From a virus: 64,000 nt of DNA. The stretch covers positions 32,001 to 96,000 of IMG/VR virus record IMGVR_UViG_3300046001_008198; one strand, written 5' to 3'. Shown one piece after another: positions 10,235 through 48,404 of this stretch. Below the pieces are notes generated by a model. The model made no database searches. It worked only from the letters and a program-made list of their open reading frames with translations, and had not been told where the DNA came from. Position 1 is the first letter of the stretch, and each line of letters begins with the position of its first letter. A program made the position numbers and the translations under genes.

Positions 10235-10278
10235 GATGCTTAACGTTTGATGATAGTAAAAGCAGGCTGTAACACCTA

Positions 10279-10890
10279 CTATGGTTTGTCCTGCATTTTA
10301 TAGAGGGTGAATATTTCTGGGTTGAACACGGGAATGTTTTTCAGTACGGTTTGGATATGCCACTTTCTTCTTTCTGCCGGACTCATGTTGGAAAAGGGTT
10401 TTGAGTTGTATCTGCATGGAATGAATGTTAATGGATATGTTACTGTCGAACTCCATTCTGTATCTGAGCTTCTGAAGGTTAGGATATGATTTGCCTTTAA
10501 CTTATTTAGGATGTTCTCGAACAATGCTTTTTTGATTAGTTCTACTACAATATCTCCTAGAGTATTATGACCTGATGATTCATTGAACTCTTCTGCTGGT
10601 GAAGTCCAATGTCTTATTAGATTATCTATTTCATTTAATATTTTAAGATCTATGGGATCTGCATTTCTTACAACGATTGATGACCATCCGTCTACATATG
10701 ATGCAGAAAAATCACAGGCTTGTATGTCATCGATATATAACTTGCATGTAAAGTTTACATTGTAACTGAATTCGCTGTGATGTACACTCTTGTCATATTT
10801 GACATTAGGCTTTGCAACTGACAATTTGTATTTGTTAACTACTTCCAAAAGCTCTGGCTCTAAATCGTATATGGCTCTTATAGTTTTCAT
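10279..10890 (-). CDS. hypothetical protein
   Basis: Tiles with neighbours. Confidence 0.65.
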   Translation of the reverse strand: MKTIRAIYDLEPELLEVVNKYKLSVAKPNVKYDKSVHHSEFSYNVNFTCKLYIDDIQACDFSASYVDGWSSIVVRNADPIDLKILNEIDNLIRHWTSPAEEFNESSGHNTLGDIVVELIKKALFENILNKLKANHILTFRSSDTEWSSTVTYPLTFIPCRYNSKPFSNMSPAERRKWHIQTVLKNIPVFNPEIFTLYKMQDKP

Positions 10891-11231
10891 AGCTGTTTAC
10901 AATAAGTTATAAATTCTTCGGTGAATTCACCTTCGTCAGTGAGTACTTCAATAGATTCAGTTTCATCCTGACCACAGAAAAGCGGGTAAGGTTCTTTGCT
11001 GTTGTATGTAGTTTTGAATATTACTTTTTTCTTCTTAATGGAAACATCAAGATTAGAAATAGTTAAGGATCCTTCATCCAATAATTCTATTTCGAAAGGC
11101 TCATCTATTTCATCGTATCCCATTTTAACAGGAGTTCTTCCATCAAGTATTAATAGTATAAGTCTACCCATGCATTTGAGTAGTTTTCCTTCATTAAAAA
11201 GGTCACGGGGTATTACGCGGTTATAACTCAC
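10887..11231 (-). CDS. conserved phage protein of unknown function
   Basis: N-terminus YNRVIPRDLFNEGKLLKCMGRL recalled as a recurrent phage family (not database-checked). Confidence 0.6.
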   Translation of the reverse strand: MSYNRVIPRDLFNEGKLLKCMGRLILLILDGRTPVKMGYDEIDEPFEIELLDEGSLTISNLDVSIKKKKVIFKTTYNSKEPYPLFCGQDETESIEVLTDEGEFTEEFITYCKQL

Positions 11232-11396
11232 AGTTCTTTGTAAAATTTAAAATGTTAGTGGACCATCGATCCTTCAGTCTAGTTTCCAAAAGTCTAAGCT
11301 TTGACTTATCTGGATGTATTGTTTGTAGATTACGAGTTTTGTTTATTGCTATAGTAAGCGTGTAATCTTTTTTTATGAAATAATTTAATGGTTTTT

Positions 11397-11936
11397 TCAT
11401 AAGCTGTGATATAGTGTTAATTCTTTTAAATTTTCAATAATGAATCCTTTTAATCTGAAGTGAGCAATGTTTGCTTTTATGGTAGCAGCATCGGAAGGAA
11501 TTGGAATAAGTTTCCAGAAATCTCCTGATGCTGTAGGATGAGAAGCTTTGATTGCTCTACTGCTTAATAAATGTTTTTTTTGATGTAAATAAATCATCGC
11601 TTTGGCTATTGAAGTCCTCATAGTTTCCACAGGTTTGCCTTGATACATTCCTGTAAAAGATATAGAGTCTGCTTTTTTAGAAGCTGTTATGTAACAATTT
11701 GTATTAGTTACACCTACTTCTAATTCATAGTAACCATCCCAGTTTGATTTTATAATATAGTTATCACTTTGAAGATCGTGATTGAGTTCAAGCATTCTAA
11801 ATGAGTGTTGAAATATTTCTATGAATTCATCTATTGATACTTTAGGAAAGGTTGTGTGTTTTGCATTATTAAAATAAAGTAATGTGTTGGTGTCAGGAAG
11901 TAGTCTTACCCGTCTAATTAACCATAGATGTGTCAT
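11397..11936 (-). CDS. hypothetical protein
   Basis: 179-aa ORF on the coding strand. Confidence 0.6.
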   Translation of the reverse strand: MTHLWLIRRVRLLPDTNTLLYFNNAKHTTFPKVSIDEFIEIFQHSFRMLELNHDLQSDNYIIKSNWDGYYELEVGVTNTNCYITASKKADSISFTGMYQGKPVETMRTSIAKAMIYLHQKKHLLSSRAIKASHPTASGDFWKLIPIPSDAATIKANIAHFRLKGFIIENLKELTLYHSL

Positions 11937-11948
11937 AATATAAAAATT

Positions 11949-11975
11949 AAAAAAGCCCGCTGTATGGTCGCGAGC
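11949..11975 (-). terminator. intrinsic terminator
   Basis: Minus strand GCTCGC-loop-GCGGGC followed by a T-tract. Confidence 0.6.
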
Positions 11976-12126
11976 ACACCCCTTTGATAAGCATTCCGTT
12001 ATGATTATTTAAGCAGTACGGTTTATACATCTTTCTGTGATACAATTCAAGGGTTCAACAAGAAAGTAGTCTGATTATCGTAACCTCTCAGGACTGAGGT
12101 GAACATTCACTGCACCCTAACAATAT

Positions 12127-13911
12127 TTATAATTCTAAATAAAAGACTTCAGATGTTTCTGTAAGTTGTACATTAATAAATCCGTCCACTACTTGATGAG
12201 TGTATTCGGCATTCTCTTTTTTGTACAACTCTTTAATTCTTGCTTCGATACGATCAGCAAATTGATTCTTTGATGCTTCGATAACTGGTTCAGAAATTTC
12301 CATGAAGTCAACACCTTCGATTGTTGGTGTAGCTACATTTTGTTGAACAGCATTTAATAATGCTAAATCACTTTCATCTAATTGCATAATAGGAGCATCT
12401 CCTGCAGCAGCTGTTAATTCAGCCATGATATCTACAGACATTTCTGGAGTTGCTTCAACAGCAGGTGTTTCAGTTGATGACATTCTTTCTCTTGCTTCTT
12501 GGCAAGCCATGATAATGTTTTCTGTAGACATTGTTTCATGGGGAAGAGATTGGAATAATTCTAAAAAGTCTGCTTCAGCCAAAAGTCTTTCTGACGGTTC
12601 TGTAGTTACGACAGTCCCAACACTTTCCTGAACTTCTACTTCTACAGTCTTCTTTCTTTTCGGCTTTTCAGCAGTATCTGGAGCCATTGATGTAATCCAA
12701 TTCTCACAAAGAGTTTGATTGAAAGCTATGGATTCCATTTCTTTAAACTGTTCACCTGCATATTGGTATATCAATGCAGGACTATGCTTAGTTGTGTCAA
12801 GCATGTGATCAACAAAAGCTTCTGAAGTTATTGTTGACGTAGCAGGAGCTTCTTCTTCTTTAGAGAATTCAATTACTAACTCACTGTCTTCTGCATCAAC
12901 AACTTCTTCTTCTCCAAGGTTATGATCAATTTCTAAACCTTCTGCAAATCCTGATTGTTCTACTTCAGGTTCTCCTTCAATTTCAGCTACTCTTTCAAGA
13001 TACTCTTGATCGCTTTCAACATGAGCTTCAACTTCATATTTAAAACCTTCTTCTGTTTCAACTGGTTCTGTAACAACTTTTAGTTGCATTTCAGTTTCAA
13101 CTTCATTGTTTTCCAATACAAGTTCAAAAGCATCTTGGTGTACAGTATCTTCTTCTGCTATTTCTAATTCGAACTTAGGAAGAGTTAATTCAGTCGGTAC
13201 ATAATTAGCTACTTCAAGCATAACTGACATGTGTATACGTTGCTGACATACTTGCCATAATCCCATACCTGCATCTTGAATACCAAACATTAGGTATTTA
13301 TACAAGCCCCATAGAGTATCGCGATCCGTGTATTCAAACATAGGTTTCTTTCTTTCTCGGAATACAGCAACTGCTTGAGTTTGATTTAGGAATTCTTTCT
13401 CAAAGAATAATCTTCCCATAATGATTCCATACAACTGATCAGTTAAAGGAATTTTCAACATCTCATTTTTCTCATCAATGATTGATTGGAAATGGTCAGC
13501 CGCTTGAGAACATAAGTCTTTGATTGTTTCTTCAGCTTCATCGAAGGCTGTTCCTGTATGCTTGCGTAACCACTTAGCACCTGTAGAACCAATCATGGTA
13601 GTTTGGTTATCGTAAATCATTCCTGCAATAGCACAGCCAAACTTTACTTTCTTGTTGTAAGAGTTCTGCCAGTGGAAAACCATTCCCATTTGAGGGTCGG
13701 TTAGATTTTGAATAAAGAATTCTCCTTCAGCTACATCACCTTGATCTCCTTCAAAGAAAGATTCCGAAGTTATTTCGAAATTATTTGCTGCAAGTTCACG
13801 GCGAATTGTATCGATTACAAAACCGTGAGGGATTACAGTATAGGTATCTGTTGCCACAGGTAATGTGGTATTTCTTAAATAAGCTTCTGATATTGATATT
13901 TGTGCTTTCAT
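12127..13911 (-). CDS. DUF932/DUF945-like N-terminal domain fused to a long Glu-rich acidic region
   Basis: N-terminal T.TYTVIPH..VIDTI..EL and NSYNK..KFG..I pattern; residues ~240-594 are strongly acidic and low-complexity. Confidence 0.55.
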   Translation of the reverse strand: MKAQISISEAYLRNTTLPVATDTYTVIPHGFVIDTIRRELAANNFEITSESFFEGDQGDVAEGEFFIQNLTDPQMGMVFHWQNSYNKKVKFGCAIAGMIYDNQTTMIGSTGAKWLRKHTGTAFDEAEETIKDLCSQAADHFQSIIDEKNEMLKIPLTDQLYGIIMGRLFFEKEFLNQTQAVAVFRERKKPMFEYTDRDTLWGLYKYLMFGIQDAGMGLWQVCQQRIHMSVMLEVANYVPTELTLPKFELEIAEEDTVHQDAFELVLENNEVETEMQLKVVTEPVETEEGFKYEVEAHVESDQEYLERVAEIEGEPEVEQSGFAEGLEIDHNLGEEEVVDAEDSELVIEFSKEEEAPATSTITSEAFVDHMLDTTKHSPALIYQYAGEQFKEMESIAFNQTLCENWITSMAPDTAEKPKRKKTVEVEVQESVGTVVTTEPSERLLAEADFLELFQSLPHETMSTENIIMACQEARERMSSTETPAVEATPEMSVDIMAELTAAAGDAPIMQLDESDLALLNAVQQNVATPTIEGVDFMEISEPVIEASKNQFADRIEARIKELYKKENAEYTHQVVDGFINVQLTETSEVFYLEL

Positions 13912-15908
13912 AAATTAAGAGTTGTTTGTGACACTAAGGCCTTTAGATTATTAATTTCTCTGTTGACTTTTTTGATATAAAAACTGTAATCGATTTGATA
14001 ATATTCGATAGGTAATGTGCTGTCTACATTGATTGCTACTTCTTCTAATGAGGAAGATGCTTCTAGTTTCAATACACCTGCAACAGTTTTAGACTTATGT
14101 ACTTTTAGGATCTTACATCCATTCTTACATGCGTAGTACCGAATGGTTTTAGGGAGGGGAAATGTTACCATTTCGTCATCCATTCCTAGATAACATTCTT
14201 TTATAAATTTCCAATCCCCTTTGGCTCGAACACCCGCGCAATAATCGTAAATGTTTTGACCTTCTTTGATTGTTTTTTCTACAGGTATACCTAGTACAAA
14301 ATAATTATACAAGGCAATACGATTTATCCTATAGGATTTGTTTTTATGCAAAGCTTTATCTACTTCGAAGCGACCTTTACATTTGGTAGCGAAGTGATAA
14401 ATCTTATCGCCAGAAACTTTAAGCAAGGGTTTCTGTTCTTCAGCTAATAAACTTTTAGCTTTCTCTAAAGGAATTTCTTTTCCTTTAAATATACCTATGT
14501 AATTATTAACATCAAATACAATAAGCCTTTGGTAATCTTCATACTCCAATTCAAGTAGAGTTTGAGCTTCCCATTCTTTACAAATCTGATCGAATAGTTC
14601 TTCATATTCCTGTGGAATTAATACTTCTCCACCGTCAGTGTTTACCATCAGTGGTCTAGCCATTGGAATACGCTCACACAGGTCTTCTAAGAGCATAACT
14701 AATGAAAGCTGTCCATTACATGTAATCTGCATTGTAAAGAAGCTGTCCTTGAGAAAGCTATTCTTTTCATTACTTAACCCATAGGTTGAGTTCAGAACAA
14801 TTTTATACATGTAGTTTAGCGGATTCTTTTTGTCATACTTCAGACGCTCATTATAAAACCATTCATATCTGTTACAAAAGATTTCATTATTGATATGTGC
14901 TGGAGCCCATCTGTTACGGATTGCGAGATTAGGATAGAAAGATTTGACATCAAAAGATTTGATAATCATTCCGTCACCTGATTTATAATCACCTCGCTTG
15001 GCTCCATGGATTCCACCTAATGCAAAAGATATAGGTAAACCTCGATAGCTGATATCATATTTGAATGTACCTTTTAGATTTTCACCATCGAGTACTAGGT
15101 TCTTGAATGTACCTAGCATTTTCTGAAGACCTTCTGTTTTGAATTTAATGTATGGAAGAATTGCTTCTTTCAAATGAATTTTAGGACGATAAGTTTTCTT
15201 GTCTTTCAGATCCCATTTGCTAATACCTAAATCTTTACTTAGTAAATCCAGAAATATTTTCTTTACCATGTCTGGCTCAGAAGAATTCTTTAGATTCAAA
15301 TTAAAAACTTTCGATAACTCTTGTCTGATTTCAACTTCTCCTTTGTTTATTTTGTAAAGTTCTAAGGTAGATAAGCAATCATTCAAACAATATTTCCTGA
15401 GATCTAAAATTTGTTCGCGTGTGAGATGATCTCCTGGTTGGCAATCCATATCCATAATATTTGGATAGTCCATATTGTATTGGATCCATTTGAGAGATGC
15501 GAACTTTTGTTGGTTGTTGTAATTATTTATTGATGCTATATCGCAATCATTGTAAAGGAGATCCTTCTTTTTATAGATAGCATAACCTTTAGTATTTTTT
15601 TGATCGAGAAGGGTTTGAACAAAAAGATAAACTTCTTCAGCCACCCTTTCTCCAGAGAGATGGAGTAAGCGCTCATAGTTACTAATGACAAATGTTGAAA
15701 CCTGCGTATCAAAATCAAGCCCGTTGAATGAAATCAATCGAGTCTTATTTTTAATTAATTGTTTTTGAAAGTGGAGGTATTCAGTAAGTTGATTTTCATA
15801 TGAAGATACTTCAAAGCTGATAACATCATCAGGTTTATCGGCATCAACATATAAGGTCAGAAAACAGTTTCGAATTGTTTCTTTATCAAATACATATTCT
15901 TTTTCCAT
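13908..15908 (-). CDS. polB: family B DNA polymerase
   Basis: ExoI DKET, ExoII FNGLDFD, ExoIII YCLND; polymerase motifs SFDVKSFYPNL, YKIVLNSTYG, VNTDG. Confidence 0.92.
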   Translation of the reverse strand: MEKEYVFDKETIRNCFLTLYVDADKPDDVISFEVSSYENQLTEYLHFQKQLIKNKTRLISFNGLDFDTQVSTFVISNYERLLHLSGERVAEEVYLFVQTLLDQKNTKGYAIYKKKDLLYNDCDIASINNYNNQQKFASLKWIQYNMDYPNIMDMDCQPGDHLTREQILDLRKYCLNDCLSTLELYKINKGEVEIRQELSKVFNLNLKNSSEPDMVKKIFLDLLSKDLGISKWDLKDKKTYRPKIHLKEAILPYIKFKTEGLQKMLGTFKNLVLDGENLKGTFKYDISYRGLPISFALGGIHGAKRGDYKSGDGMIIKSFDVKSFYPNLAIRNRWAPAHINNEIFCNRYEWFYNERLKYDKKNPLNYMYKIVLNSTYGLSNEKNSFLKDSFFTMQITCNGQLSLVMLLEDLCERIPMARPLMVNTDGGEVLIPQEYEELFDQICKEWEAQTLLELEYEDYQRLIVFDVNNYIGIFKGKEIPLEKAKSLLAEEQKPLLKVSGDKIYHFATKCKGRFEVDKALHKNKSYRINRIALYNYFVLGIPVEKTIKEGQNIYDYCAGVRAKGDWKFIKECYLGMDDEMVTFPLPKTIRYYACKNGCKILKVHKSKTVAGVLKLEASSSLEEVAINVDSTLPIEYYQIDYSFYIKKVNREINNLKALVSQTTLNL

Positions 15909-15920
15909 AAATTATTGGAT

Positions 15921-15951
15921 AAAAAAAGGAGTGCTATGATGCACCCCTTTT
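15921..15951 (-). terminator. intrinsic (possibly bidirectional) terminator
   Basis: A-tract, GGAGTGC-loop-GCACCCC, T-tract. Confidence 0.55.
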
Positions 15952-15971
15952 ATTCTTTGATATATTGGAAA

Positions 15972-16379
15972 CTATAGAAATGACTTGTAGTCAGCTCTAT
16001 CAGCATTTATCGCAAACATCTCTACAAATGTAATGATGTCCTCAGCTTTTTCAATTTGGATTTCATGAAATACTTCAAACATTTTTCGCTCTTGCTTGAA
16101 TGGATGACTTACTTTGGTACGACTGTCCGTATTAGGAGTCATCATTCCTTTGTCATCTACTTTCGGCATGAAGCTGAAATGATTTTTCTTTTCTTTCAGT
16201 AAGCACGCTAAGATTTTTCTTTTAGGATCGAATACACATTCTACATAAGGGCAGTCTGTTGTAAGCGGGATTAAAGAAAAAGTTGACTGCTCTCCACTTA
16301 AAGTGGTTGAAGTAATAAGCATTGAACCTATTACAGGTAATGCTTTGGACTTGGTTGGTTTATTAGGTAACTCTGGCAT
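15972..16379 (-). CDS. hypothetical protein
   Basis: Preceded by a TATATTTG promoter-like box at 16396-16403. Confidence 0.7.
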   Translation of the reverse strand: MPELPNKPTKSKALPVIGSMLITSTTLSGEQSTFSLIPLTTDCPYVECVFDPKRKILACLLKEKKNHFSFMPKVDDKGMMTPNTDSRTKVSHPFKQERKMFEVFHEIQIEKAEDIITFVEMFAINADRADYKSFL

Positions 16380-16409
16380 ATAATTAATTTTTTTTCAAAT
16401 ATAAGAAAT

Positions 16410-17381
16410 TTATAATTCAACTTCACCTAAAGCATATTCTTTTGGTAAATTGAATTCTTGTTTTCTCAAATGCCACTGCACTGTGTCAAATGATTTATTC
16501 ATTCTACAAGTCCATTTGTGCATACTTTCTTCTGAAACTTTGAATGCGTACACATCATTGTTTTTATCACATACAAGAAAGTAAAATTCAATCTTCCATT
16601 TATCTTTAGAGTTTTTTGGAATAAGTGACTCTACTAATTTTTTGTATATAGGAGGTTGTAAAAAGTAATGATATGTATCGAAACTAAATTCCTTCCACTC
16701 TTGTAAAGTACGCTCGGTCTTCTTGAGATCTACAATTTGTAGTACACACTTTTCATAATCGACTTTTAGTCTGTCCACAATTCCTCTAAGATCGAAATCC
16801 CATTCAGGCATGTTACAAGTTACATCCATTTCATTACGACATACTTGTTTCTGATTTGTTTGTTCAAAGAAATTATGATGCGCTTTATCATAATCCAAAA
16901 CAGCATCCGCTTTGGCAGTCATGGTAGCTACCGAATCATAAGTAACAATAGGAACTTTTTTAATGTTTGCTTCCTGCAATGCTCTAAAGTAATCAATAGC
17001 TTCAGGTGTTTGAATTCTTGAAAGTTTTATAGGATCTGTCATTTTATCATACAAACCTTGCTCTTTAATCCATGCTAAAGTTTCAACATTTAATTCACCT
17101 AAGCCCACGATTCCTTTTTCAGCAACCCATTGATAGTTAAAGTACCAATCACAAAAAGCTTTTGGATTTGCACTAGGCAGTTTGGCTGACTGCATCATAA
17201 ATTTTTCATTGATGGTATCTCTTTCCAATAGTAATGCATGGAATAATTGTCCGTCTACAAAATGTTTCTGATCAACTTCTTCAATTCCTTCTATGTATTT
17301 TTTGTAAAATTCTTTAGGACTTTTAATCAATGTTGTTATCGATGAGAAGCTTAACCTTCTTCTTTTTTTTTCTGTAAGCAT
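16410..17381 (-). CDS. PD-(D/E)XK exonuclease (RecE/exonuclease VIII-like)
   Basis: LSFSSI, GQLFHALLLE, RGIVDRL..IVDLKKT, YFLQ..IY. Confidence 0.8.
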   Translation of the reverse strand: MLTEKKRRRLSFSSITTLIKSPKEFYKKYIEGIEEVDQKHFVDGQLFHALLLERDTINEKFMMQSAKLPSANPKAFCDWYFNYQWVAEKGIVGLGELNVETLAWIKEQGLYDKMTDPIKLSRIQTPEAIDYFRALQEANIKKVPIVTYDSVATMTAKADAVLDYDKAHHNFFEQTNQKQVCRNEMDVTCNMPEWDFDLRGIVDRLKVDYEKCVLQIVDLKKTERTLQEWKEFSFDTYHYFLQPPIYKKLVESLIPKNSKDKWKIEFYFLVCDKNNDVYAFKVSEESMHKWTCRMNKSFDTVQWHLRKQEFNLPKEYALGEVEL

Positions 17382-17387
17382 AGATAT

Positions 17388-18278
17388 TTATTTAAATTTT
17401 AATTTTGCTTTGAACATAAACTTATCACTTTTTTCTGTTATAAGTGGATTGTATTCTGCTAAGATGAAGGACATCATACGTGTTTTATCTTGCTTATAAA
17501 TACTTGGATCTCCATCACGTACAGCTGAATTTAATTCACATAATGTATCAATTGTATCAAGATGTAATTCTCCTTGAAATCCATTCTGTGATGTAGATGC
17601 TGATATAGTTTTAAGATAATTTAATAACACATCTCCTTTTAATATCTCTTTGTTTATATGACCAAGCATGATAAGATATTCAAATGATGTTACAGCATTC
17701 CATCTAAGACATGATGTTATACCGAGTTTTATATTTTCTGCATTTTCAGATGTCAACAAAGCTTTAGTTTTAGTATAGTCTTCTAGTTGCATAGTTGGTC
17801 TATCCATTAATCTAAAAAATTCAGATACAGGTACACGGATAGCAGATGATTTAGGATTTGGTGCACGAACAAAACTTTTTGTATGCCCTACGCTTTCATT
17901 AGTTTTATCCATATCTGCTGTAAATACTGTTGCCTCAGGATACTCTTCTAATATTTCTTTGGCAATGTCTATAATATTAGCATCTTGAGATGCAAATGCA
18001 GGAATTACTTTCATATATTCTATTGATAATTTATCAATAAATAATATATTTTCAAGTGTTCTGTTAACAGCAAATGGACTTATTGTTATAGGAGATCCTT
18101 GAATTTGGAATACTATATCGGTCGATGATTGCTTTTGCTTTTTGAACCAATCAATTTGTATATCAGAAGCCTTTATTTTAGGACATAAAGCTTCAACAAA
18201 AGTTGTAACACAAGAAGCTGTGTATTTAACTTGGGTTAGGTTTTCTTTTAATACTTCTTTGAAGATAATTATTTCCAT
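17388..18278 (-). CDS. hypothetical protein
   Basis: 296 aa, on the coding strand. Confidence 0.7.
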   Translation of the reverse strand: MEIIIFKEVLKENLTQVKYTASCVTTFVEALCPKIKASDIQIDWFKKQKQSSTDIVFQIQGSPITISPFAVNRTLENILFIDKLSIEYMKVIPAFASQDANIIDIAKEILEEYPEATVFTADMDKTNESVGHTKSFVRAPNPKSSAIRVPVSEFFRLMDRPTMQLEDYTKTKALLTSENAENIKLGITSCLRWNAVTSFEYLIMLGHINKEILKGDVLLNYLKTISASTSQNGFQGELHLDTIDTLCELNSAVRDGDPSIYKQDKTRMMSFILAEYNPLITEKSDKFMFKAKLKFK

Positions 18279-18319
18279 TGTTTTTAAAAAAAGGGAGAAC
18301 CGAAGTCCTCCCGTAATTA

Positions 18320-19525: not shown

Positions 19526-19532
19526 AATTAAT

Positions 19533-39090: not shown

Positions 39091-39142
39091 GTCAATAAAT
39101 TAAACTTCGTCAAGTCTAAGTTCTCCCTCCATGCAGGGGGTG

Positions 39143-39376: not shown

Positions 39377-39405
39377 CTTATATTTTTTAGATTGGTGTAA
39401 ATATA

Positions 39406-39945: not shown

Positions 39946-40054
39946 GGGTTTGAAGATTTAAAGATTAATACTAAATAAATAATTGTGATATATATAGGCT
40001 TTGAGGCCAAGCTGATTGAACAGCGTGTCTTGGGTTTGATGATAGTAAAAGTTT

Positions 40055-40195
40055 TTAATGTGGTACTTTACCGCCTTTTAAGGTAAACCAAATGGTGAAC
40101 ATTGGAATGAGGTTGATACAAAATCTTTTATGGTATTGAGAATAATGTACACCTATCCAGAAAGCTCGCCAATTGAATAACATTCCTAATTTCAT
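40055..40195 (-). CDS. 46-aa small protein (not in the ORF track)
   Basis: MKLGMLFNWRAFWIGVHYSQYHKRFCINLIPMFTIWFTLKGGKVPH; ATGA overlap with the upstream gene. Confidence 0.6.
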   Translation of the reverse strand: MKLGMLFNWRAFWIGVHYSQYHKRFCINLIPMFTIWFTLKGGKVPH

Positions 40196-40512
40196 TTGCT
40201 TTTCTTTTTAGATTTTAGGATGAGAAATTCTGTACACTGAATGACTGTCATAGATGGATCTGAATAATCTAATCTACCTTCAATGATTACTTCCATTTGA
40301 GGAACTAGCGTATCATTCATTATTTTAGCCATTTTTAATTTGGCGCATACATTGTGTGTTTGGATATTAGTAATGGTTGAAATCTTATTTTTAGTTTTGA
40401 ATGTTTCAACTGTTTCTAATTCCATAGATAATAAAGGACCTTTTTTAAGGTCTGTGTACATCATGGATTTTACTGTACCTATCAGAGATACTTTGTTTCT
40501 TAATGGCTGCAT
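40192..40512 (-). CDS. short SSB-like OB-fold protein
   Basis: NKVSLIG.V..H.V..A..M...V.IEGRL; no acidic tail. Confidence 0.6.
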   Translation of the reverse strand: MQPLRNKVSLIGTVKSMMYTDLKKGPLLSMELETVETFKTKNKISTITNIQTHNVCAKLKMAKIMNDTLVPQMEVIIEGRLDYSDPSMTVIQCTEFLILKSKKKSK

Positions 40513-40513
40513 A

Positions 40514-41017
40514 TCAAATTTTTTTAAGTAAGTATTCTCCTTGTTCTGTTAATCTTGGTTCAGGAACGGCATAAACTTTATCTCCACAAATATCCATCAC
40601 AAATTCAACTTCAATTTCTGTTGGTTGCATAACATGTCTTTCCAAGTAACCTTTATAAGATTTTTGAGCTTCAGGATAAGTTTTATCTTTTGAAATCCAT
40701 CCAGCATAAAAAGCATTTAATACTTGTTCCAAAGTAAACACCTTGTCTTTATTCAACTCCATTGCTTTGTTGAAGCCTATCTTAAAGCCAATTTTTTCAC
40801 GAGTTTTAAAATCATGAACACGAGTTTTTTCATCAAGTGTTTCAAGTTCTCTAGCCAACTTCTCAACATCAACTACTCCCATTGCTTTAGCAAACTCTTC
40901 TTCACAATTTTGTTTGGATAGTTTTTTATCTCTATTATCTCTTGAATCAGTAGATGCTATTGCCCAACTTTTATCAACATATAAGTAGAAAATATCATCT
41001 TTCTTAATTAGTTTCAT
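40514..41017 (-). CDS. hypothetical phage protein
   Basis: KLSKQNC..VEKLA..GF..AMELNKDK.FT..EIEVE pattern. Confidence 0.65.
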   Translation of the reverse strand: MKLIKKDDIFYLYVDKSWAIASTDSRDNRDKKLSKQNCEEEFAKAMGVVDVEKLARELETLDEKTRVHDFKTREKIGFKIGFNKAMELNKDKVFTLEQVLNAFYAGWISKDKTYPEAQKSYKGYLERHVMQPTEIEVEFVMDICGDKVYAVPEPRLTEQGEYLLKKI

Positions 41018-41037
41018 ATGATTGTGTATTAGTTGTT

Positions 41038-41247
41038 TTATTTTTTTAGTGCATCATATAGTGCTGCTGTGAACAAACACGATAATAAAAATGCTAATGC
41101 AAAGAATCCTATGCATGCTCCTCGACCTTCTGGACTCCATTGTGAAATGTTGAAAGTTACAAAGTAAAAACTTACACATAAATAGATCATAGCTATTAGG
41201 ATTACAAATATTGCAATATTTGTTTTAATTAGTTGGTGTATACTCAT
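41038..41247 (-). CDS. small two-TM membrane protein
   Basis: Two hydrophobic stretches. Confidence 0.6.
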   Translation of the reverse strand: MSIHQLIKTNIAIFVILIAMIYLCVSFYFVTFNISQWSPEGRGACIGFFALAFLLSCLFTAALYDALKK

Positions 41248-41375
41248 TTTGCTTGGGTTTAGTGGATGATAGTAAATAATAAACCCGGACCTGTATGAGA
41301 TCCGGGAATTTTCTAGTGTGCTAGAGCAGTACCTACGAAATTAAATATTTATGCTAGATATTTGGAAAAATATCG

Positions 41376-41449
41376 TGATTATGATGGGAGTCGAACCCAC
41401 ACCCCTGATCCGTGTACCCAGACCCGCACTACCCCAGTGCTACACAATC
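41376..41449 (-). tRNA. tRNA-like cloverleaf with non-canonical anticodon arm (identity unassignable)
   Basis: Acceptor GATTGTG/CATAATC, T8-A9, D arm GCAC-TGGGGTA-GTGC, T arm GTGGG-TTCGACT-CCCAT. Anticodon arm GGTCTG-GGTACA-CGGATC; no encoded CCA. Confidence 0.6.
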
Positions 41450-41526
41450 GCCATATCAGGAATAGGTAAACCTGATAATGTAATACCAATGAAGCAGGGG
41501 GTTGCCTGACTTACACACTGGTGATA

Positions 41527-41784
41527 TTATAATGGAAATTCATCTTTGTCTTTCCACAGCTGAACGATATCTGTTGGTGATTTGGTAATCACTGTGTCAA
41601 ATAATAGTTTAGCTAATGATTCGTTGTTACCTGACAAAGTAAGGAAATCTTTTTTGGTGTGAGACTTTCCTGATTTATCAATATAACATACTAAAGTTTC
41701 GCAACTGTTGTAAGCATCTACTGATTTGAAAATAGATTTAGCTTTAACAGTGCAGTGTTGTGGTGTTTGTGTAAGAGTATTCAT
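41527..41784 (-). CDS. hypothetical protein
   Basis: On the coding strand. Confidence 0.55.
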   Translation of the reverse strand: MNTLTQTPQHCTVKAKSIFKSVDAYNSCETLVCYIDKSGKSHTKKDFLTLSGNNESLAKLLFDTVITKSPTDIVQLWKDKDEFPL

Positions 41785-41802
41785 TGTTGGTTGGTTTTGT
41801 GA

Positions 41803-42120
41803 CTATTTGAATCTACCGCCGTGATCTCGCTTTGCTAACTTTTTGAGAGCATTGTCTTTGTTCAAGGCTGATATATACACACAGTCTGGTTTCATTACTA
41901 CTTTTTTGTTTGTAGATCCAGAAGAATCTTTGTTAACTACATAATCGGTTTTGGTAAACTCCGCTGGTTCAATTGTACCTGTTTCTAAATTTATTTCAAA
42001 TAAAGAATGACCTCGGTGTGGATGAATACTACCAATATGTTTTTCCTGAAACTTCTGTTCTGTTTCTTTGGAGATATGAATCTCTTCACGGACTCCTAAC
42101 TCTATTTCTTTACTGTTCAT
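41803..42120 (-). CDS. hypothetical protein
   Basis: Preceded by a TACCTTTG box (42125-42132) only 4 nt before ATG. Confidence 0.65.
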   Translation of the reverse strand: MNSKEIELGVREEIHISKETEQKFQEKHIGSIHPHRGHSLFEINLETGTIEPAEFTKTDYVVNKDSSGSTNKKVVMKPDCVYISALNKDNALKKLAKRDHGGRFK

Positions 42121-42147
42121 GATACAAAGGTAAATAAAAATTAGTTA

Positions 42148-42432
42148 TTACAAAATTATGATGTCAGTGGCAATGACTTTACCTTTAGCAAGATAACCTT
42201 CTACAGCTAAATCAGATCCGATTCGTAGGCGATTAATAAATTTTAGGTATATGTCTCCTTTGAGTACAACTCTGTGTTGATACTTTTTTGTGATAGGTTT
42301 ACCATTTCCATCCAACTGTAGAGATTTAGTTTCCAGGATAAAGCAAGTGCCTACTTTTTTAATACCTTCTTCGGTGGTTTGTTTAGGCTCAAGCGTTTTG
42401 AGAAGCTTGCCTATTAAGTTTACATGATTCAT
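42148..42432 (-). CDS. short SSB-like OB-fold protein
   Basis: MNHVNLIGKL..HRVV..L..GS.LAVEG.L; no acidic tail. Confidence 0.6.
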   Translation of the reverse strand: MNHVNLIGKLLKTLEPKQTTEEGIKKVGTCFILETKSLQLDGNGKPITKKYQHRVVLKGDIYLKFINRLRIGSDLAVEGYLAKGKVIATDIIIL

Positions 42433-42442
42433 GTGAAATGTT

Positions 42443-42646
42443 TTACTTGGTTGTGGTTAACTCTTGTGGTTGAACTTGGGTTCTTTTAACACCATGTTCT
42501 TGTTCTATTGCAAAAAGAATCTTGTTGGCTTCATTCATTCTGTCAACGGCTTTCATTCCGATTGCCATGTGATGATTGAATGTGTTGGCTGCATCAACCC
42601 ATCTTTCATTTGCAAGTTCAAATTTTAATCTGGTTGTGTCGTCCAT
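42443..42646 (-). CDS. hypothetical protein
   Basis: ATG embedded in TTTTACTATCATG. Confidence 0.55.
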   Translation of the reverse strand: MDDTTRLKFELANERWVDAANTFNHHMAIGMKAVDRMNEANKILFAIEQEHGVKRTQVQPQELTTTK

Positions 42647-42725
42647 GATAGTAAAAGTTAAAGGTTAATAAATTACCCCTCTGCATCTCAGTTGTAGGCT
42701 GTTATACCCTAAGTTAGCACCAATA

Positions 42726-43001
42726 CTATTGAACCAACCTATAAACAAGACGTTCAGCTTCTTTGCCTTTAACGTGCTTATAAATAGTTAATTCAGTTGG
42801 TGTTCCATTGTTATCAGCCATTCCGCTAATTGAAACAATTTCACTAACTTCAATCACATTATTAGGGTCTGTACCTTCATAAACTATAAATGGGAAAGGC
42901 AAAGAACCTGCCTTAAATTCCTTAATTTCATCATCAGTAAAATAAGTACTGGTGCTAACATCGGTTTGGCAAAATTGCCGTTTTGTTTCTTCGTTTGACA
43001 T
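42726..43001 (-). CDS. hypothetical protein in a cassette-like unit; start codon lies inside the attC-like repeat
   Basis: First ~15 codons (..RQFCQTDVS) are the right arm of the inverted repeat. Confidence 0.6.
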   Translation of the reverse strand: MSNEETKRQFCQTDVSTSTYFTDDEIKEFKAGSLPFPFIVYEGTDPNNVIEVSEIVSISGMADNNGTPTELTIYKHVKGKEAERLVYRLVQ

Positions 43002-43078
43002 TTTATCTAAATTTTAAAGTTTGTACTACTAATGAAGTTTTGTGTTCGGCAACTTCGCCAAGCCGAGAAACGTTATCA
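42953..43078 (-). mobile_element. attC-like recombination site (126 bp)
   Basis: TGATAAC..CGGCTTGGCGAAGTTGCCG (loop) CGGCAATTTTGCCAAACCG..GTTAGCA. Confidence 0.55.
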
Positions 43079-43376
43079 TTAACTATTTAACATAGTTCAC
43101 TTACAACTGCTCACCCTTGGGAGCTGATTAACTCATCTAGCTATATGCTACATTAGTTTCGGTTAATCAGGTGGTTTCACATCTTATGTGGCTGGTTTCC
43201 ACTACATCCCGTGCACTAGGAATAAGAAGTCTTTATATCCACGTGAGAATGGTGCATTAATAATTTGACGGCTCCCGTATTTCAGAGAGCCGTTCAATAA
43301 TTGGGTTTGTAGTACTTGCTACAAATATGTCCATCAACGCTAGGTTGGATAAAGCCGAAGCTATTTCATGATTTTT

Positions 43377-43580
43377 TCATAGATTTGTTCTAGTAATAAT
43401 TTTTTCTGTTTGTCCCCATGAAAATTCAGAGGGATTGAGATAATCTAATTTGAATGCTTTTTTGAATACATCTGCAATCATTACTTCATCGAATTCGTCT
43501 TCGAATGTTACTTCAGATTTATTAACATCAAGGATGAATGTTATCAATGATGCTAAATCAATTAATACAAGTGTTATCAT
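43377..43580 (-). CDS. hypothetical protein
   Basis: Motif TTTACTATCATC lies about 10 nt upstream. Confidence 0.55.
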   Translation of the reverse strand: MITLVLIDLASLITFILDVNKSEVTFEDEFDEVMIADVFKKAFKLDYLNPSEFSWGQTEKIITRTNL

Positions 43581-43619
43581 AATTGGGGTGGATGATAGTA
43601 AATACTATTAAATATATAA

Positions 43620-43916
43620 CTATAGTACTTGATAAATGAATAATGGATATCTCATTTCACCGTGTACTGAATCTATTTGAAAGAATATAGCCATTCCTAA
43701 GAAATTACATTCTGTAGAATCAAATGCTTGACCGTCTGGAACTATCTTAAATTTGAATATTCTATGGTAGATCATATCAGGATTGTGAGAGAAATAGATT
43801 CGGAGGTCAAGGTTAACACGTTCTATACTTAGAATTTTGGCATCCGATGGTAAGTTCACTTCATGAGTTTTTTCACATGGAAACTTAATTGTGATATATG
43901 TTATGATCGTATTCAT
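43620..43916 (-). CDS. conserved phage protein (LP.DAKILSI..F.IV.DG family)
   Basis: Pattern recognition only. Confidence 0.55.
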   Translation of the reverse strand: MNTIITYITIKFPCEKTHEVNLPSDAKILSIERVNLDLRIYFSHNPDMIYHRIFKFKIVPDGQAFDSTECNFLGMAIFFQIDSVHGEMRYPLFIYQVL

Positions 43917-43927
43917 ACAGTTACGTT

Positions 43928-44344
43928 TTATAAGAGTCCTATCTTTTCAAGGAAATCTTTGTTAGTAAATCGATGTTCAAAGAATTCAATTACATAGACA
44001 TCTTCATCAGTAATAAGATGGTCAATGGCTGTGATATGGTCGCCGTCATTGTATTGGCGAAGAAGATTAAGCATTGCATCAACAAGGTAATCGATGTGTT
44101 CATACGTAATGAATTGTCGAGCACTCTCGATAGCTACTGCCTGAGCAAAATACTTGTTAATATCCATTCTGTGGTAGTCAAAGTCTTTCTCAGAATTATC
44201 AGCGTCAAGGATTATTAGTCGTTTGATAATGTTTGGAAGCTCTGTAGCACTGAGGATGTGTGTGAGGTAGAGATTATTTGGTGTCATTATTTGGTGGATT
44301 AAATGATAGTAAATACCAGTATATTTTTTCATCATGCATTCCAT
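43928..44344 (-). CDS. hypothetical protein (start likely 44287)
   Basis: Motif copy at 44303 lies about 16 nt upstream of ATG 44287. Confidence 0.55.
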   Translation of the reverse strand: MECMMKKYTGIYYHLIHQIMTPNNLYLTHILSATELPNIIKRLIILDADNSEKDFDYHRMDINKYFAQAVAIESARQFITYEHIDYLVDAMLNLLRQYNDGDHITAIDHLITDEDVYVIEFFEHRFTNKDFLEKIGLL

Positions 44345-44627
44345 GTAAGTCGAGAATGCTGAATGCTGTTTGGTGGTAATTGATTATTGGTTCAGATGAT
44401 ATTCCGAATGGAAATCTTTCATTTTTGTAATCGTAATAAGTTCCAACCCAATTTTCATATTTGAAAATATCATGAGTGCCCTGACTATAATCAGGACCTT
44501 GAGTGATAACAAATACATTTAGATCCGGACGATATGTTGATACCCAGATATGTTTTAATGTTTCTGATTTATCTGTAGTAATCAATAACTTCACACCAGG
44601 TTTTGTTTCAAAAAGGATATGTGCCAT
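44274..44627 (-). CDS. tandem paralog family member 3
   Basis: ILFETKPGVKLL...YWYLLS. Confidence 0.65.
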   Translation of the reverse strand: MAHILFETKPGVKLLITTDKSETLKHIWVSTYRPDLNVFVITQGPDYSQGTHDIFKYENWVGTYYDYKNERFPFGISSEPIINYHQTAFSILDLHGMHDEKIYWYLLSFNPPNNDTK

Positions 44628-44630
44628 AAT

Positions 44631-44966
44631 TTATGAGATTAAGTACCAATAGAATATATCTGGATGTACAAAATCATATCCTTTGAGAATTGATTCTAAC
44701 GATTCATGTTTATAATATGTTGATCCTGCTACAGAATTGTAAATAATAAACTGAGTATTGATTCTGTTTGGTGTACCTGTTGTACTAAGAAATGCATCAA
44801 TAACATTAGGTTTTGTTATAGTCCACAGTGTTTCTTCATTTGTATACAACACAGTTAATTTGTCATAATAGAAGAAAGTTGAGAATGCAAGCACTAGATT
44901 AGGACATTTTTCTTGAACAACAAGCAAGCGTACTCCGGATTTAGGTTCTACGATAATTCGTTTCAT
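44631..44966 (-). CDS. tandem paralog family member 2
   Basis: IIVEPKSGVRLL...YWYLIS. Confidence 0.65.
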   Translation of the reverse strand: MKRIIVEPKSGVRLLVVQEKCPNLVLAFSTFFYYDKLTVLYTNEETLWTITKPNVIDAFLSTTGTPNRINTQFIIYNSVAGSTYYKHESLESILKGYDFVHPDIFYWYLIS

Positions 44967-44978
44967 AGGCGCTGGGTG

Positions 44979-45293
44979 TTATGATAGTAAATGCCAATAG
45001 GTCTCACCTTTGGATGTGAACATATAATGATTTAGCATTTCAAGTAGGCATTCACTTACAGTTGCACAATAATCTGATGGTTCACGGATGTTTATGAAGT
45101 TACTGTCCCACGGCAATAAGTTAACACCTTTTACGGTAATGAGGTAATGGAATTCTGGTGGTGCAAAGTAGAGTGTGAAATCTTCAGGGCCTGTAAACAT
45201 TTCAGTAGTGAATACATGAGGGAGCATTTTTGATTTAGTCTTTGTTAGCAACAATCGCACTCCTGGTTGTGGTTCAATTATGAGGTGGTTCAT
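44979..45293 (-). CDS. tandem paralog family member 1
   Basis: LIIEPQPGVRLL...YWHLLS. Confidence 0.65.
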   Translation of the reverse strand: MNHLIIEPQPGVRLLLTKTKSKMLPHVFTTEMFTGPEDFTLYFAPPEFHYLITVKGVNLLPWDSNFINIREPSDYCATVSECLLEMLNHYMFTSKGETYWHLLS

Positions 45294-45302
45294 AAGGCTT
45301 GG

Positions 45303-45659
45303 TTATTTATCTTCTTTCATTATATGAATTTCATCGATGGCGAATGTAATGGATGGATCCATCTTACTTTTGATTGTTAATTCAGCCATTTGTTGAGCAT
45401 CGAAAGCATCAGTAGCTTTGACAAAGAAGTCTGCCGTGTATGTAACTTTGAATGATTTAAGTTGACGTAGTTCTTTGATGTATGCATAAACTGTTTTGAA
45501 TTTTTGCTTACGCTCAATAGGGTCTAGTATTTTGTCAACTGTTGTAGTGATTGATGCGTCACCATTTGTATATAATATAATACAGGCTCTTTGTAAAAAG
45601 GGAAATTTCTTTTTTATCTTGGTGACTAAGTTCTTGTGTTCAATTGGTGAGAGTTCCAT
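45303..45659 (-). CDS. hypothetical protein
   Basis: ATG directly after the motif variant TACTATCATC. Confidence 0.6.
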   Translation of the reverse strand: MELSPIEHKNLVTKIKKKFPFLQRACIILYTNGDASITTTVDKILDPIERKQKFKTVYAYIKELRQLKSFKVTYTADFFVKATDAFDAQQMAELTIKSKMDPSITFAIDEIHIMKEDK

Positions 45660-46153
45660 GATGATAGTATTAATAGGTGAAAATTCAAAAGCGGCAGGTA
45701 CTAATCTTTCTGAATTACTTCTATACTATAAGAGATAAAAGAAAAGATCTGTCATGCATGTAGTCTTCAAAGATAGAGTCTTGAGGTATGAGGTCATGTT
45801 CTATGCAATGTTCGAATAGCTCTGTAGTGGTCCAATCGTAGTAGGGAGTGTCCATATAGTAATATTTAAATTGAATAAATGGTCGGTTTGAGTAGGTATG
45901 AAGAGGTGAGGAATATAGGGATAGGTTGTCCCTCAGTATCACACAAAGAGAAGCCAAAACCTCGCATTATTGTAATGCTATGCTTAATAAAGAGGATTAA
46001 AGTATCAAATATCCCCGGGTGGAGACTAACTTTGAAAAGATTAATCCCTTATAAACATTGAGAAGTATGTAAAAGTATACTATTGGATTCCTAAAACAGT
46101 ACAAAAGGAGATATTGCTACCTCCTAATGCATTGTTCCTCTCTTTACACAAGG

Positions 46154-46342
46154 TTATTGTTCATCTAATTCGATATAACCTAGTATGAATAGGTCATTTG
46201 TATTAGCTGAAATACTGATTGATTCTGTTTCTACTTCTTCAATCATAAACTTAATAGCGAATTTCTTTGCTATTGCTTTGAATTGGTAGTACTCCTTTAA
46301 ACTAAGGTGTATGATTGTGGTAATGATTTCTGCAGTTTTCAT
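46154..46342 (-). CDS. hypothetical protein
   Basis: 62 aa, followed by a terminator-like hairpin near 46105-46125. Confidence 0.5.
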   Translation of the reverse strand: MKTAEIITTIIHLSLKEYYQFKAIAKKFAIKFMIEEVETESISISANTNDLFILGYIELDEQ

Positions 46343-46896
46343 AAGCTTATTTATTGTGGTTTATAGCCTTATTTAATTAATTATGAGATAGTTACGCATT
46401 GTAACTTAAAGTAATAGTTAAACCCTTTCACGGTACAGGCATGGTCTTGCTGGATGAGTGATGTATTAGTAGTTGGGCTTGTAATACGTAAGGGTTGCTT
46501 GTAATAGGATAGTAGCTTGGGTCCTGGAGTATGAGATCATCTCTGTTGTTTCGGCTTTCCTGATTACAGGCGGGGTGATGATAGTAAGGTAGCACATTCT
46601 TGATTGGGCCTTCTTCGAAGAAGCTAGTAGCTAGGGTCCCGAAGGATGTGAAGGTCAGGAAGTGCATACCATGGGACTGTAATTACTACGAGTGCTGTTC
46701 CGTGTTAGCACGGGTGAGCATTGGGTGTAGAGACTGTTGCCAAGATCGCATGTATGTCAACCCTCGGAGAGCATAGGTTGCCTAGGCGGCAGGACGAAGT
46801 CCTTCTAAGAGCCGACACCAAGTTGGGAGTGAGTAGCGATGATAGTAAAACAAAGCCCCCGTTAAGGGGCGATGTTCAGTACCAAGGATATCTGTG

Positions 46897-47742
46897 TTAC
46901 TCAATAACCAAACCTCCGAAGGCTTTAGTCTTTGTAGTAGCATGTACTTCCATTTTTGCAATAGCCTCTGATTCTCGTTGTTTAATCTGCTCTTCAGGAG
47001 AAAGTTGAGCAAATGATTCACGAATTTCTTGGTTTGCAAGAGTCAATGATAGTAAAGAAGGCGAAGCCGAAGTCAAGATGCTCGGATTACCTTTCAATAG
47101 ATTATCATCGTATTTGATTGGAACAGTACTTCCGACAAAGGATTTACCCTTAGCCTCAAACGCTTTGATTAATTCATCAAGGTTTGTGAACACCTGTTCA
47201 ACACGAAACACTTTATCTCCAAAGCGAATTGCGATTCTACGGCGACCGTAGTTCCAATTCTCAAGATGTCCTTTCGGATTCTCAGGAGTAATGTGTTTAT
47301 CAAATGTGTAAGATTTCTTTTTCTCAGGATTTTGTCTGTGATAAAGTAATCTTTCAGTATCAACCTTCGCACTAGCAACAACACAATGCACCATAGGTAC
47401 AGAGATATTTGATTCAGTAATGAAGTGTTGAATATCCACACCTTCAACAGTAATATCGTCACGGACAATATCAGAAGTGTTAGGTGTTTCAACATCAGCG
47501 CCCCAACCTAAAGAAGTAGCCAAAGCATTAAGCTTTGCTTGAACTAAAGGGTTGTTAGATGCTGACGCACAAAGAGTTGTCAATGCAGTTTTAGATTTAA
47601 CACCTAAAGCTAATTTAATGTCCGATGACAACGGACAAGCCTGTAAAAATTCTGAAGCATTCATATGAATGAGTATTTGGTAAAAAGAAGATGTCTTTAA
47701 GTAGGCACATCGATTCCTTGATACAATTCGTGTATGTATCAA
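46897..47742 (-). CDS. hypothetical protein (start probably MNASEF)
   Basis: Long ORF within an otherwise non-coding region; followed by a terminator at 46855-46870. Confidence 0.65.
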   Translation of the reverse strand: MIHTRIVSRNRCAYLKTSSFYQILIHMNASEFLQACPLSSDIKLALGVKSKTALTTLCASASNNPLVQAKLNALATSLGWGADVETPNTSDIVRDDITVEGVDIQHFITESNISVPMVHCVVASAKVDTERLLYHRQNPEKKKSYTFDKHITPENPKGHLENWNYGRRRIAIRFGDKVFRVEQVFTNLDELIKAFEAKGKSFVGSTVPIKYDDNLLKGNPSILTSASPSLLSLTLANQEIRESFAQLSPEEQIKQRESEAIAKMEVHATTKTKAFGGLVIE

Positions 47743-48404
47743 ACAGAGATATATAAATTAGCGAGCGAAGCCAAAATATCTCGAAGAGATTCAATCTAAG
47801 TCAAAGGTTGAGAGTAGTGAAAAACACTTGATTACCGAGCACCAATTAAGGGACAAGACAATCAAGTGTAAACCTAAGCTGAAACTATGAAAACTGAATA
47901 CAATCCAATCTATGTCAGAGGTGAGGATGAGGGTTGATGATAGTAAACAAAACTCCCCGTAGGGAGTTGTTGGGTTTCTGCCGTGGCCCACACGCCTATC
48001 GAGGTTTGTTTCTTGGGAGCTGACTTGACCTCGTAGGTACAGTAACATTCAGCTCTTGCATTCCGACAACATTGTCAGAGAAGATTTGGTTGGAGTTCCC
48101 CTCTCAACCATGTAGTCGCAGTGTTCTCAGTGGTTATGATAGATGAGCTCTGCGCGCACCCTCTATCCTGTCCTCGTTGTGCACCATACCATATCGGTCC
48201 ATCGAGTCAAGGATACTCAATCGGTGGTGAATATGTCGAACCAACAACAACTCACAATATAATCCAATCTAAGTCAAAGGTTGAGCGAAGCGAGAGTGGG
48301 TGTGATGAGCGATGATAGTAAAAGAAAAGTCCCGAAGGACTATATCTTTTCGACTCCCTTGCTTTCTTGTGGTATGAGAACATCCACTCATCAGATTCAT
48401 CAAT

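Follow-up and report, generated by a model that had tools for sequence, protein, structure and literature searches.

The subject of this analysis is a near-exact 12-base word, T-TTACTATCAT-C, on the minus (coding) strand of a 64,000-nucleotide (nt) stretch of viral DNA, hereafter the window, which comprises bases 32001-96000 of the 125,219-bp virus record IMGVR_UViG_3300046001_008198, rated complete. Pointing one way and heading small early genes, the word is most likely these phages' own transcription start signal. That it is a promoter, whether the reader is a polymerase carried in the virion or the host enzyme with an added factor, is probable; the narrower proposal, that it forms the core of a phage-specific promoter opening self-contained units and is read most likely by an injected gp66-type RNA polymerase, draws on analogy with phage phi14:2 and is advanced tentatively, at a little below even confidence. 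The observations that carry the argument are the statistics of the word, its positions, its conservation in relatives, and the insertion or deletion of a cassette bounded by it; from position and conservation we infer the promoter role, the start position and the reading polymerase.

Counting on both strands of the window returns 16 exact copies of ATGATAGTAA on the plus strand and none on the minus strand, matching in number and coordinates an earlier annotation of the window made from its letters (the sequence-only reading). One hundred dinucleotide shuffles of the window yield a mean of 0.36 copies and a maximum of 3, in keeping with the chance expectation of well under one copy given in that reading, and the whole-genome count on both strands that it had proposed gives 17 copies against 0 on the opposite strand, with 0 and 2 for a control word. 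The word is also the genome's top-scoring 10-mer, with 17 copies seen versus 0.51 expected under a third-order Markov model. The shuffles and the Markov 10-mer ranking rule out an artefact of chance or composition, and the mostly intergenic placement of the copies rules out a coding repeat. The word is unusually exact: one-mismatch variants number 5 on the motif-bearing strand and 1 on the opposite strand genome-wide, the near copy ATACTATCAT reported earlier at 45661 being real and one of these 5. Exactness of this order (17 exact versus 5 one-mismatch copies) is found in promoters of phage-encoded polymerases. The other strand-biased word, CCTCAAGG (12 to 0), lies at genome 114.9-116.4 kb, outside the window, where the source of its bias is the coding of Gly-Pro-Gln-Gly collagen-like repeats of late proteins; intergenic k-mer enrichment in the plus-strand arms returns A/T runs only and no second crisp motif.

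Genes, here simple open reading frame (ORF) calls, point rightward between 1 and 34.3 kb and between 81 and 125 kb of the genome, and leftward from 34.3 to 81 kb. The leftward arm encodes a DNA polymerase, a primase, DnaB-like and Dda-like helicases and an exonuclease, and its first third (window 49-34 kb) comprises many small ORFs without a Pfam family; 14 of the 16 copies fall within window 34.2-48.4 kb, as the sequence-only reading had stated. The rightward arm opens with giant ORFs of 2082, 3833 and 1942 amino acids (aa), the 3833-aa ORF (genome 16434-27935) being collinear with gp66 of phi14:2 (BLASTP E = 5e-10), with its catalytic motif DYDID aligned to DFDID of phi14:2 (AKTGADYDIDKLF against TKTGSDFDIDKMY) and its C-terminus matching YbiA. 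Because of this collinear gp66-type match, catalytic motif included, the source phage classifies as crAss-like. In phi14:2, transcription of the replication/regulatory arm falls to gp66, which is injected and resists rifampicin, and that of the remaining genes to the host polymerase (Drobysheva et al., bioRxiv 10.1101/2020.03.07.982082; review PMC10136315), and for that reason the leftward arm is here taken, on the phi14:2 scheme, as the putative early arm. A near-identical coding stretch at genome 1763 and 124310 hints at repeated ends or a duplicated gene. The arm and the copies of the word in it are the following, in window coordinates:

2353..49200, minus strand: putative early/replication arm, holding all 16 window copies of the motif, all in the sense direction.
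48312..48321, minus strand: motif TTTTACTATCATC, 6 nt past terminator hairpin 48328-48341; heads an ORF-poor stretch of ~360 nt ending at the next terminator.
47937..47946, minus strand: motif, 4 nt past terminator hairpin 47951-47968 and 272 nt ahead of a 255-aa ORF (start 47664).
47046..47055, minus strand: motif within the 255-aa ORF, in frame as Leu-Leu-Ser-Leu, without the following C.
46839..46848, minus strand: motif, 6 nt past terminator hairpin 46855-46870; heads a non-coding stretch with a conserved 55-nt element (46757-46811).
46578..46587, minus strand: motif in the same ORF-poor stretch as 46839; the next credible start (46342) is 235 nt on.
45661..45670, minus strand: near copy ATACTATCATC; the ATG of a 118-aa ORF (45659) is 1 nt on.
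44981..44990, minus strand: motif with its final T as the first base of the preceding ORF's TAA stop; next ATG (44966) 14 nt downstream.
44303..44312, minus strand: motif in the last codons of the upstream ORF (Leu-Leu-Ser in frame); next ATG (44287) 15 nt downstream.
43592..43601, minus strand: intergenic motif; ATG (43580) 11 nt downstream, after a leader without G.
42645..42654, minus strand: intergenic motif whose final two bases are the AT of ATG 42646.
41266..41275, minus strand: motif, 8 nt past terminator hairpin 41284-41306; ATG (41247) 18 nt downstream.
40039..40048, minus strand: intergenic motif, 93 nt ahead of ATG 39945.
37834..37843, minus strand: motif within a 189-aa ORF, in frame as Leu-Leu-Ser-Ser.
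36152..36161, minus strand: motif, 9 nt past terminator hairpin 36171-36193; ATG (36148) 3 nt downstream.
34261..34270, minus strand: motif in codons 3-6 of the ORF starting at ATG 34277, in the frame Ile-Thr-Ile-Ile.
28641..28650, minus strand: motif in the 3' part of a 197-aa ORF, in frame as Leu-Leu-Ser-Ser, 54 nt ahead of ATG 28586.
10250..10259, minus strand: intergenic motif between stop 10279 and ATG 10234, with a 15-nt leader.

Aligned on the coding strand, the 16 exact copies give the extended consensus T-TTACTATCAT-C and disclose no conserved block upstream to -40, a -35 element included. The downstream tract is C/A-rich and G-poor. The C-rich, G-poor tail described in the sequence-only reading is real, modest at +11..+30 (C 30% versus 17%, G 14% versus 17%) and strong in the true leaders between motif and ATG, which, pooled from this genome and its relatives, contain 5.9% G versus a background of 17% (p = 5e-9) and 32% C.

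Seven of the 16 exact copies end -2 to 18 nt before an ATG (binomial p = 6e-7), the near copy likewise, and the eight start codons that had been named, which open ORFs of 67-245 aa, prove correct. Five of the 16 lie 6-10 nt past strong intrinsic-terminator hairpins (4 nt by coordinates at 47937; p = 2e-10), and the terminators so joined to a motif make up 5 of the ~7 strong minus-strand ones in 33-49.5 kb. An ORF-poor, GC-richer stretch of 2 kb at the arm head holds four copies (48312, 47937, 46839 and 46578); an Rfam search of the ORF-poor stretches gave nothing, and their folding energies are ordinary (z = -0.3 and -1.3). The copies overlapping coding sequence read Leu-Leu-Ser(-Ser) at 28641, 37834, 47046, 44303 and 44981, with 34261 in another frame. 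The closeness of eight sites to a start codon, the strict sense orientation and the G-poor, C/A-rich, unstructured leaders would also suit a signal acting in RNA, UUACUAUCAUC, in a 5'-leader or between cistrons, such as (i) a processing site, (ii) a RegA/RegB-like site for a translational repressor or activator, or (iii) a nut-like antitermination signal beside a hairpin. We regard an RNA element of this kind as rather unlikely, with the next start up to 93-370 nt away and several copies non-coding or in mid-ORF, and with a placement right after strong terminators that would leave little read-through RNA carrying the word. Translational control, one of the three roles offered in the sequence-only reading, fits poorly in particular, since copies also stand 54-370 nt from any start, within genes and in non-coding stretches.

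Relatives were reached via homologues of the Dda-like helicase in IMG/VR contigs. The word T/G-TTACTATCA(T/C)-C-A recurs in ten related contigs (helicase 42-47% identical, polymerase 31%), whose whole records hold 27 copies, all on the helicase-gene strand, versus 0-1 of a reversed control word; the copies in the pairs G006/G007, G004/G005 and G012/L042 are orthologous and hence not independent. Conservation in relatives, a check suggested at the outset, is therefore borne out in a single orientation. The earlier term phage-specific cis element stands as regards a strand-specific early-arm element that is conserved in ten diverged relatives and fixed in coding DNA, and fails as regards specificity to one phage, the word being shared by a clade. 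G006 and G007, both near-complete, carry a collinear polymerase orthologue, 31% identical to that of the present phage, and TTACTATCAC variants follow terminators in G007 at 17193 and 18218.

One copy, GG-TTACTATCATCA, stands 20-28 nt ahead of the helicase ATG at an orthologous site in six lineages, where it is preceded by GTAG and a hairpin with GNRA-like loops and no U-tract. The stems of this hairpin differ with pairing kept (CCACGC/GTGTGG, CCGCCTC/GAGGTGG, CCTCTCC/GGAGGGG and CCGCAT/GTGCGG), a covariation read from the sequences directly, the MAFFT alignment of these hairpins being out of register. The covarying hairpin abutting the word again suits an RNA element, but a strong upstream hairpin is found at only about 22% of sites (-10 kcal/mol or stronger, at a distance of 0-10 nt, in 22% of 41 sites versus 5% of controls). 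In L072, L073 and L293-L295, the sequence 20-45 nt upstream of the helicase ATG comprises a conserved GGTAGCC, a hairpin of 6-7 bp with a G..A tetraloop, and GG, an arrangement that may resemble the 16S rRNA 3' end (GGUAGCC plus helix 45), possibly by coincidence. A free-standing HNH/AP2-type homing endonuclease gene (~160 aa) lies between motif copy and helicase start in L035/L073 (G006) and L061 (G008) and is absent in G007.

Two copies in relatives sit within conserved ORFs. In a 93-aa ORF (G007 27978-28259), three lineages share TTA-CTA-TCA codon for codon, whereas 11 of the 12 other fourfold- or sixfold-degenerate codons that encode a conserved residue vary (Fisher p = 0.009); from the orthologue in the window (36601-36894), both the Leu-Leu-Ser-Ser peptide and the word are missing. 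Because these codons are fixed amid drifting synonymous sites and the orthologue lacks both peptide and word, selection at this copy, judged from the alignment, acts on the nucleotides and not on the peptide.

The 55-nt non-coding element at window 46757-46811 (minus strand), which a motif copy closely precedes here as in G007, is 84% identical to G007 18378-18431 (L075; E = 4e-10), proteins being 31-47% identical between the two genomes. Part of it forms a stem capped by UUCG, where one change is compensatory (GGAC/GUCC against GGGC/GCCC). The element has no Rfam match and may be a conserved early non-coding RNA; phi14:2 also produces abundant early non-coding transcripts. The ~400-nt stretch around it in G007 contains a repeated GTGTCGGCT...CTGCCGCC module.

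No closer relative was found in the phage collection by DNA or protein search. The closest helicase homologue, P0001, is 69% identical and lies on a 113.9-kb contig that is not among the IMG/VR or GTDB contigs. An IMG/VR scan for GGTTACTATCATCA gave, among the matches listed, almost only chance or coding matches, a scan with a helicase profile yielded one more lineage, G009, among hits that were mostly unrelated helicases, and two early proteins have no relatives in IMG/VR or the JGI metagenomes.

Comparison of G006 with G007 highlights the modular character of the units that the word heads. An insertion of ~450 nt in G006 comprises, in order, a terminator, TTACTATCAC, a G-poor leader, an ORF of ~105 codons, a terminator and TTACTATCAC again, where G007 has a single terminator-plus-word. 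The cassette is present in G006 and L304 and absent from G007, L306 and L309, one of these being a metagenome contig, so what is gained or lost is an entire module of word, gene and terminator, with a copy of the word at each junction. This arrangement, the word standing at the head of a unit with its own terminator, is a further point against an RNA leader element. It also bears on a purely recombinational role, in which the word would be a short homology or target for cassette exchange without any part in expression: the cassette is bounded by two copies, and the copy-rich part of the arm is full of small ORFs without relatives. Recombination as the sole role is nevertheless very improbable, as 10-12 nt are short for homologous exchange and the flanking terminators may provide the homology, the majority of G006/G007 breakpoints lie away from copies, orthologous copies persist across diverged genomes (one of them in an ORF that does not border an indel), and strict orientation and proximity to start codons would not be needed. 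The recombination anchor suggested in the sequence-only reading thus gains one clear case in relatives as a secondary role.

A compact promoter, which fits best among the three roles first offered, would account for the exactness and single orientation of the word, for its placement behind terminators and ahead of starts, for the copies heading non-coding stretches and for the modular indel. T-TTACTATCAT-C would be the promoter core opening units in the first third of the early arm, the units comprising small genes and non-coding RNAs and often being closed by an intrinsic terminator. Since three sites (42646, 45659 and 36148) have an ATG that overlaps the word or follows within 0-3 nt, transcription would start within the word, at or before the A of ..TCAT.., and most simply at that A; the transcripts would then begin with AUC and a C/A-rich, G-poor, unstructured leader, or would be leaderless. 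The reader would most likely be the 3833-aa gp66 homologue, as an injected virion RNA polymerase of the crAss type, and the identical promoter-plus-terminator junctions might double as break-and-join points for the gain and loss of cassettes. The virion polymerase is proposed as reader because gp66 transcribes the early arm in phi14:2, and because neither a sigma-70 domain nor a T7-type polymerase is detectable: no sigma-70 region 2 or 4 domain was found in the genome with positive controls working, and PF00940 gave nothing in the genome in a search run without a positive control. In its most specific form, proposed with slightly more reserve than the assignment to the virion enzyme, TTACTATCATC with +1 at the A of ..TCAT.. 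may serve the crAss-type injected polymerase as its promoter throughout a family-level clade, recognised without sigma or hairpin and kept constant while the enzyme diverged to 31% identity.

A promoter could also be read by the host RNA polymerase with an unrecognised phage factor of the gp55 or MotA kind, or with an unusual host sigma, TACTAT then serving as a -10-like element of delayed-early or middle units; we consider this a less likely though serious possibility. TACTAT, contained in the word, matches 4 of the 6 positions of TATAAT, with the key A2 and T6, and a conserved host reader would more easily explain a word invariant across virion polymerases that are 31% identical. Host-read promoters of phi14:2 shared a motif, virion-polymerase transcripts none, and the very first arm genes lack the word, as if an earlier product were needed. 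On the other side, the word has no conserved -35 or other upstream block, such exactness is unusual for sigma-dependent promoters, no sigma-70 region 2 or 4 domain was found in the genome with working controls, and a start 6-8 nt past TACTAT would fall in or beyond the ATG at the three sites with the closest starts. The word bears no likeness to the Bacteroidota consensus, TTTG/TAnnTTTG, and a standard host promoter of that type (-7 TAnnTTTG, -33 TTTG) is ruled out, the word lacking that box. Sigma-70-like promoter matches are fewer than in shuffles, and bipartite TTTG-N17-21-TAnnTTTG matches in the genome are rare and without bias to the gene sense strand; they do not corroborate the host TAnnTTTG box that the sequence-only reading took to be used elsewhere in the window.

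An operator, at which a phage DNA-binding protein would switch early units off or on from a fixed position relative to non-conserved promoters, appears improbable. The length and exactness of the word suit a protein site, the word is restricted to the early third of the arm, and a DnaA_C-like helix-turn-helix protein is encoded in the arm (34951-35448, a match below the Pfam cut-off); the word, however, lacks palindromic symmetry and has no second conserved promoter element beside it, and conserved copies in coding DNA far from starts would be hard to explain.

Several observations weigh against the word being a promoter for the virion polymerase. For the copies inside ORFs, at 37834 and 47046, no gene that they might serve is apparent. 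The first arm genes (48973-48405) and the replication genes (33-11 kb part) have no copy, although terminators directly precede genes there. The 17th copy, beyond the window at genome 118986-118995, runs antisense to the late gene that contains it, and in G006 and G007 only 4 of 5 copies are sense and in the early arm, 1 being antisense in the late arm. Phages with virion polymerases only 31% identical carry the word unchanged, whereas promoter specificity drifts much faster in T7-type phages, which favours a slower-evolving reader. The word is absent from the phi14:2 early arm, where a de novo k-mer search found no analogous motif, and phi14:2 early transcripts showed no common upstream motif (bioRxiv 10.1101/2020.03.07.982082). 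Across the few lineages available, the motif is present in G006/G007, not enriched in G003 and absent in phi14:2, and its invariance at 31% polymerase identity cuts both ways. G003, a more distant 126-kb genome with 26% GC and a patchy polymerase match (23-30% identity), also gave no analogous motif in a de novo k-mer search.

Strong terminator hairpins with T-runs in the replication part of the arm lie at 23352-23411, 18279-18319, 15909-15971 and 11937-12126 (minus strand), with the next start within 10-20 nt and without the motif. The present genome, G006 and G007 each carry a single antisense late-arm copy (G007 84318), at non-homologous sites and perhaps by chance; late messages at such copies would carry the complement of the early-leader word. 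A further repeat, CTTTGACTTAGATTGGAT, occurs in four copies with 0-2 mismatches (49005-49022, 48262-48279, 47903-47920 and 47789-47806, minus strand), all at the early-arm head and nowhere else in the genome, two of them ~30 nt after a motif copy; candidate functions are those of an operator, of an iteron or of a second class of promoter. In the divergent inter-arm region, beside G/C runs, two tandem 42-nt direct repeats, 74% identical, occupy window 49274-49359 (plus strand), and a similar word, ATAATGTAT(A/G)ATGATGTG, is kept at the same place in G007. One further feature precedes a terminator-motif junction:

41376-41449, minus strand: tRNA gene, scoring 37.8 bits against the Rfam tRNA model (cut-off 29, E = 1.4e-6) and not reported by ARAGORN or by the whole-window Rfam run; terminator 41284-41306 closes it, and the motif at 41266 comes next.

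The crAss-like phages are among the most abundant viruses known, and the structure of their injected polymerase has been solved; a literature search found no paper describing a promoter that this enzyme reads, and in phi14:2, the one model that has been mapped, early transcripts showed no common motif. New here are the conservation of the word across ten related contigs, its fixation within coding DNA and its place at both ends of a cassette in relatives. A near-invariant, clade-wide 12-nt word offers a concrete template to test with recombinant polymerase and, if the proposal is true, would be the first defined template for the biochemistry and structure of initiation by this polymerase class; it can also serve to annotate early transcription units in uncultured relatives, and the cassette indel that it bounds suggests how crAss-like phages shuffle small early genes. 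This value is tempered by the function being deduced throughout.

Among known systems, the word is nearest in role to the promoters of injected phage polymerases (N4 and P23-45) and in layout to the promoter-early stem-loop (PeSL) cassettes of T4-type phages. The present phage resembles phi14:2 in its giant gp66-type virion polymerase, in a layout that sets small early and replication genes on one arm against structural and cargo genes on the other, and in ORF-poor stretches near the arm head, which are early-transcribed in phi14:2; it differs in that a single exact word, known here from its sequence, marks the units, phi14:2 having no common early motif. The core of T7/SP6 promoters is ..TCACTATAG, with +1 at the final G; TTACTATCA agrees with it in 7 of 9 positions, and in that alignment +1 falls on the A of ..TCAT.., which is also where the ATG overlaps would place it, a likeness of form that may be chance. 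The conserved length is 12 nt here versus 23 in T7/SP6, and both would be near-exact words containing their own start.

The virion polymerase of coliphage N4 is a T7-like enzyme that needs a template-strand hairpin. The few conserved, strand-specific sites at the head of the N4 early region have a counterpart here, where some sites have a hairpin just upstream; unlike N4, the hairpin is missing at most sites and its distance is variable, and the polymerase is of the two-barrel crAss type. An obligatory hairpin promoter of the N4 type is ruled out, most sites being without a hairpin. In N4, the early promoters are read by the injected virion polymerase (PMC4496689).

The PeSL elements of T4-type phages comprise a terminator stem-loop and an early promoter, recur between small non-essential ORFs in a plastic region, and bound indels (Arbiol et al. 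2010, PMC2839356). The joining of terminator to motif in 5 of 16 copies here, together with G007 17193 and 18218, and the relatives' indel bounded by copies are alike; PeSL promoters are strong, sigma-70-like host promoters, whereas the present word has no -35 element and is neither sigma-70- nor Bacteroidota-like. Finally, the tape-measure-fused virion RNA polymerase of P23-45 has an AT-rich promoter motif tied to mapped starts and chromatin immunoprecipitation sequencing (ChIP-seq), which is common to relatives encoding the enzyme and absent from relatives without it (bioRxiv 10.1101/2022.12.01.518664). Motif sequence, host phylum and polymerase architecture differ between that system and the present one; in both, a conserved short motif stands before the first-expressed genes and is read, here putatively, by an injected two-barrel single-chain polymerase.

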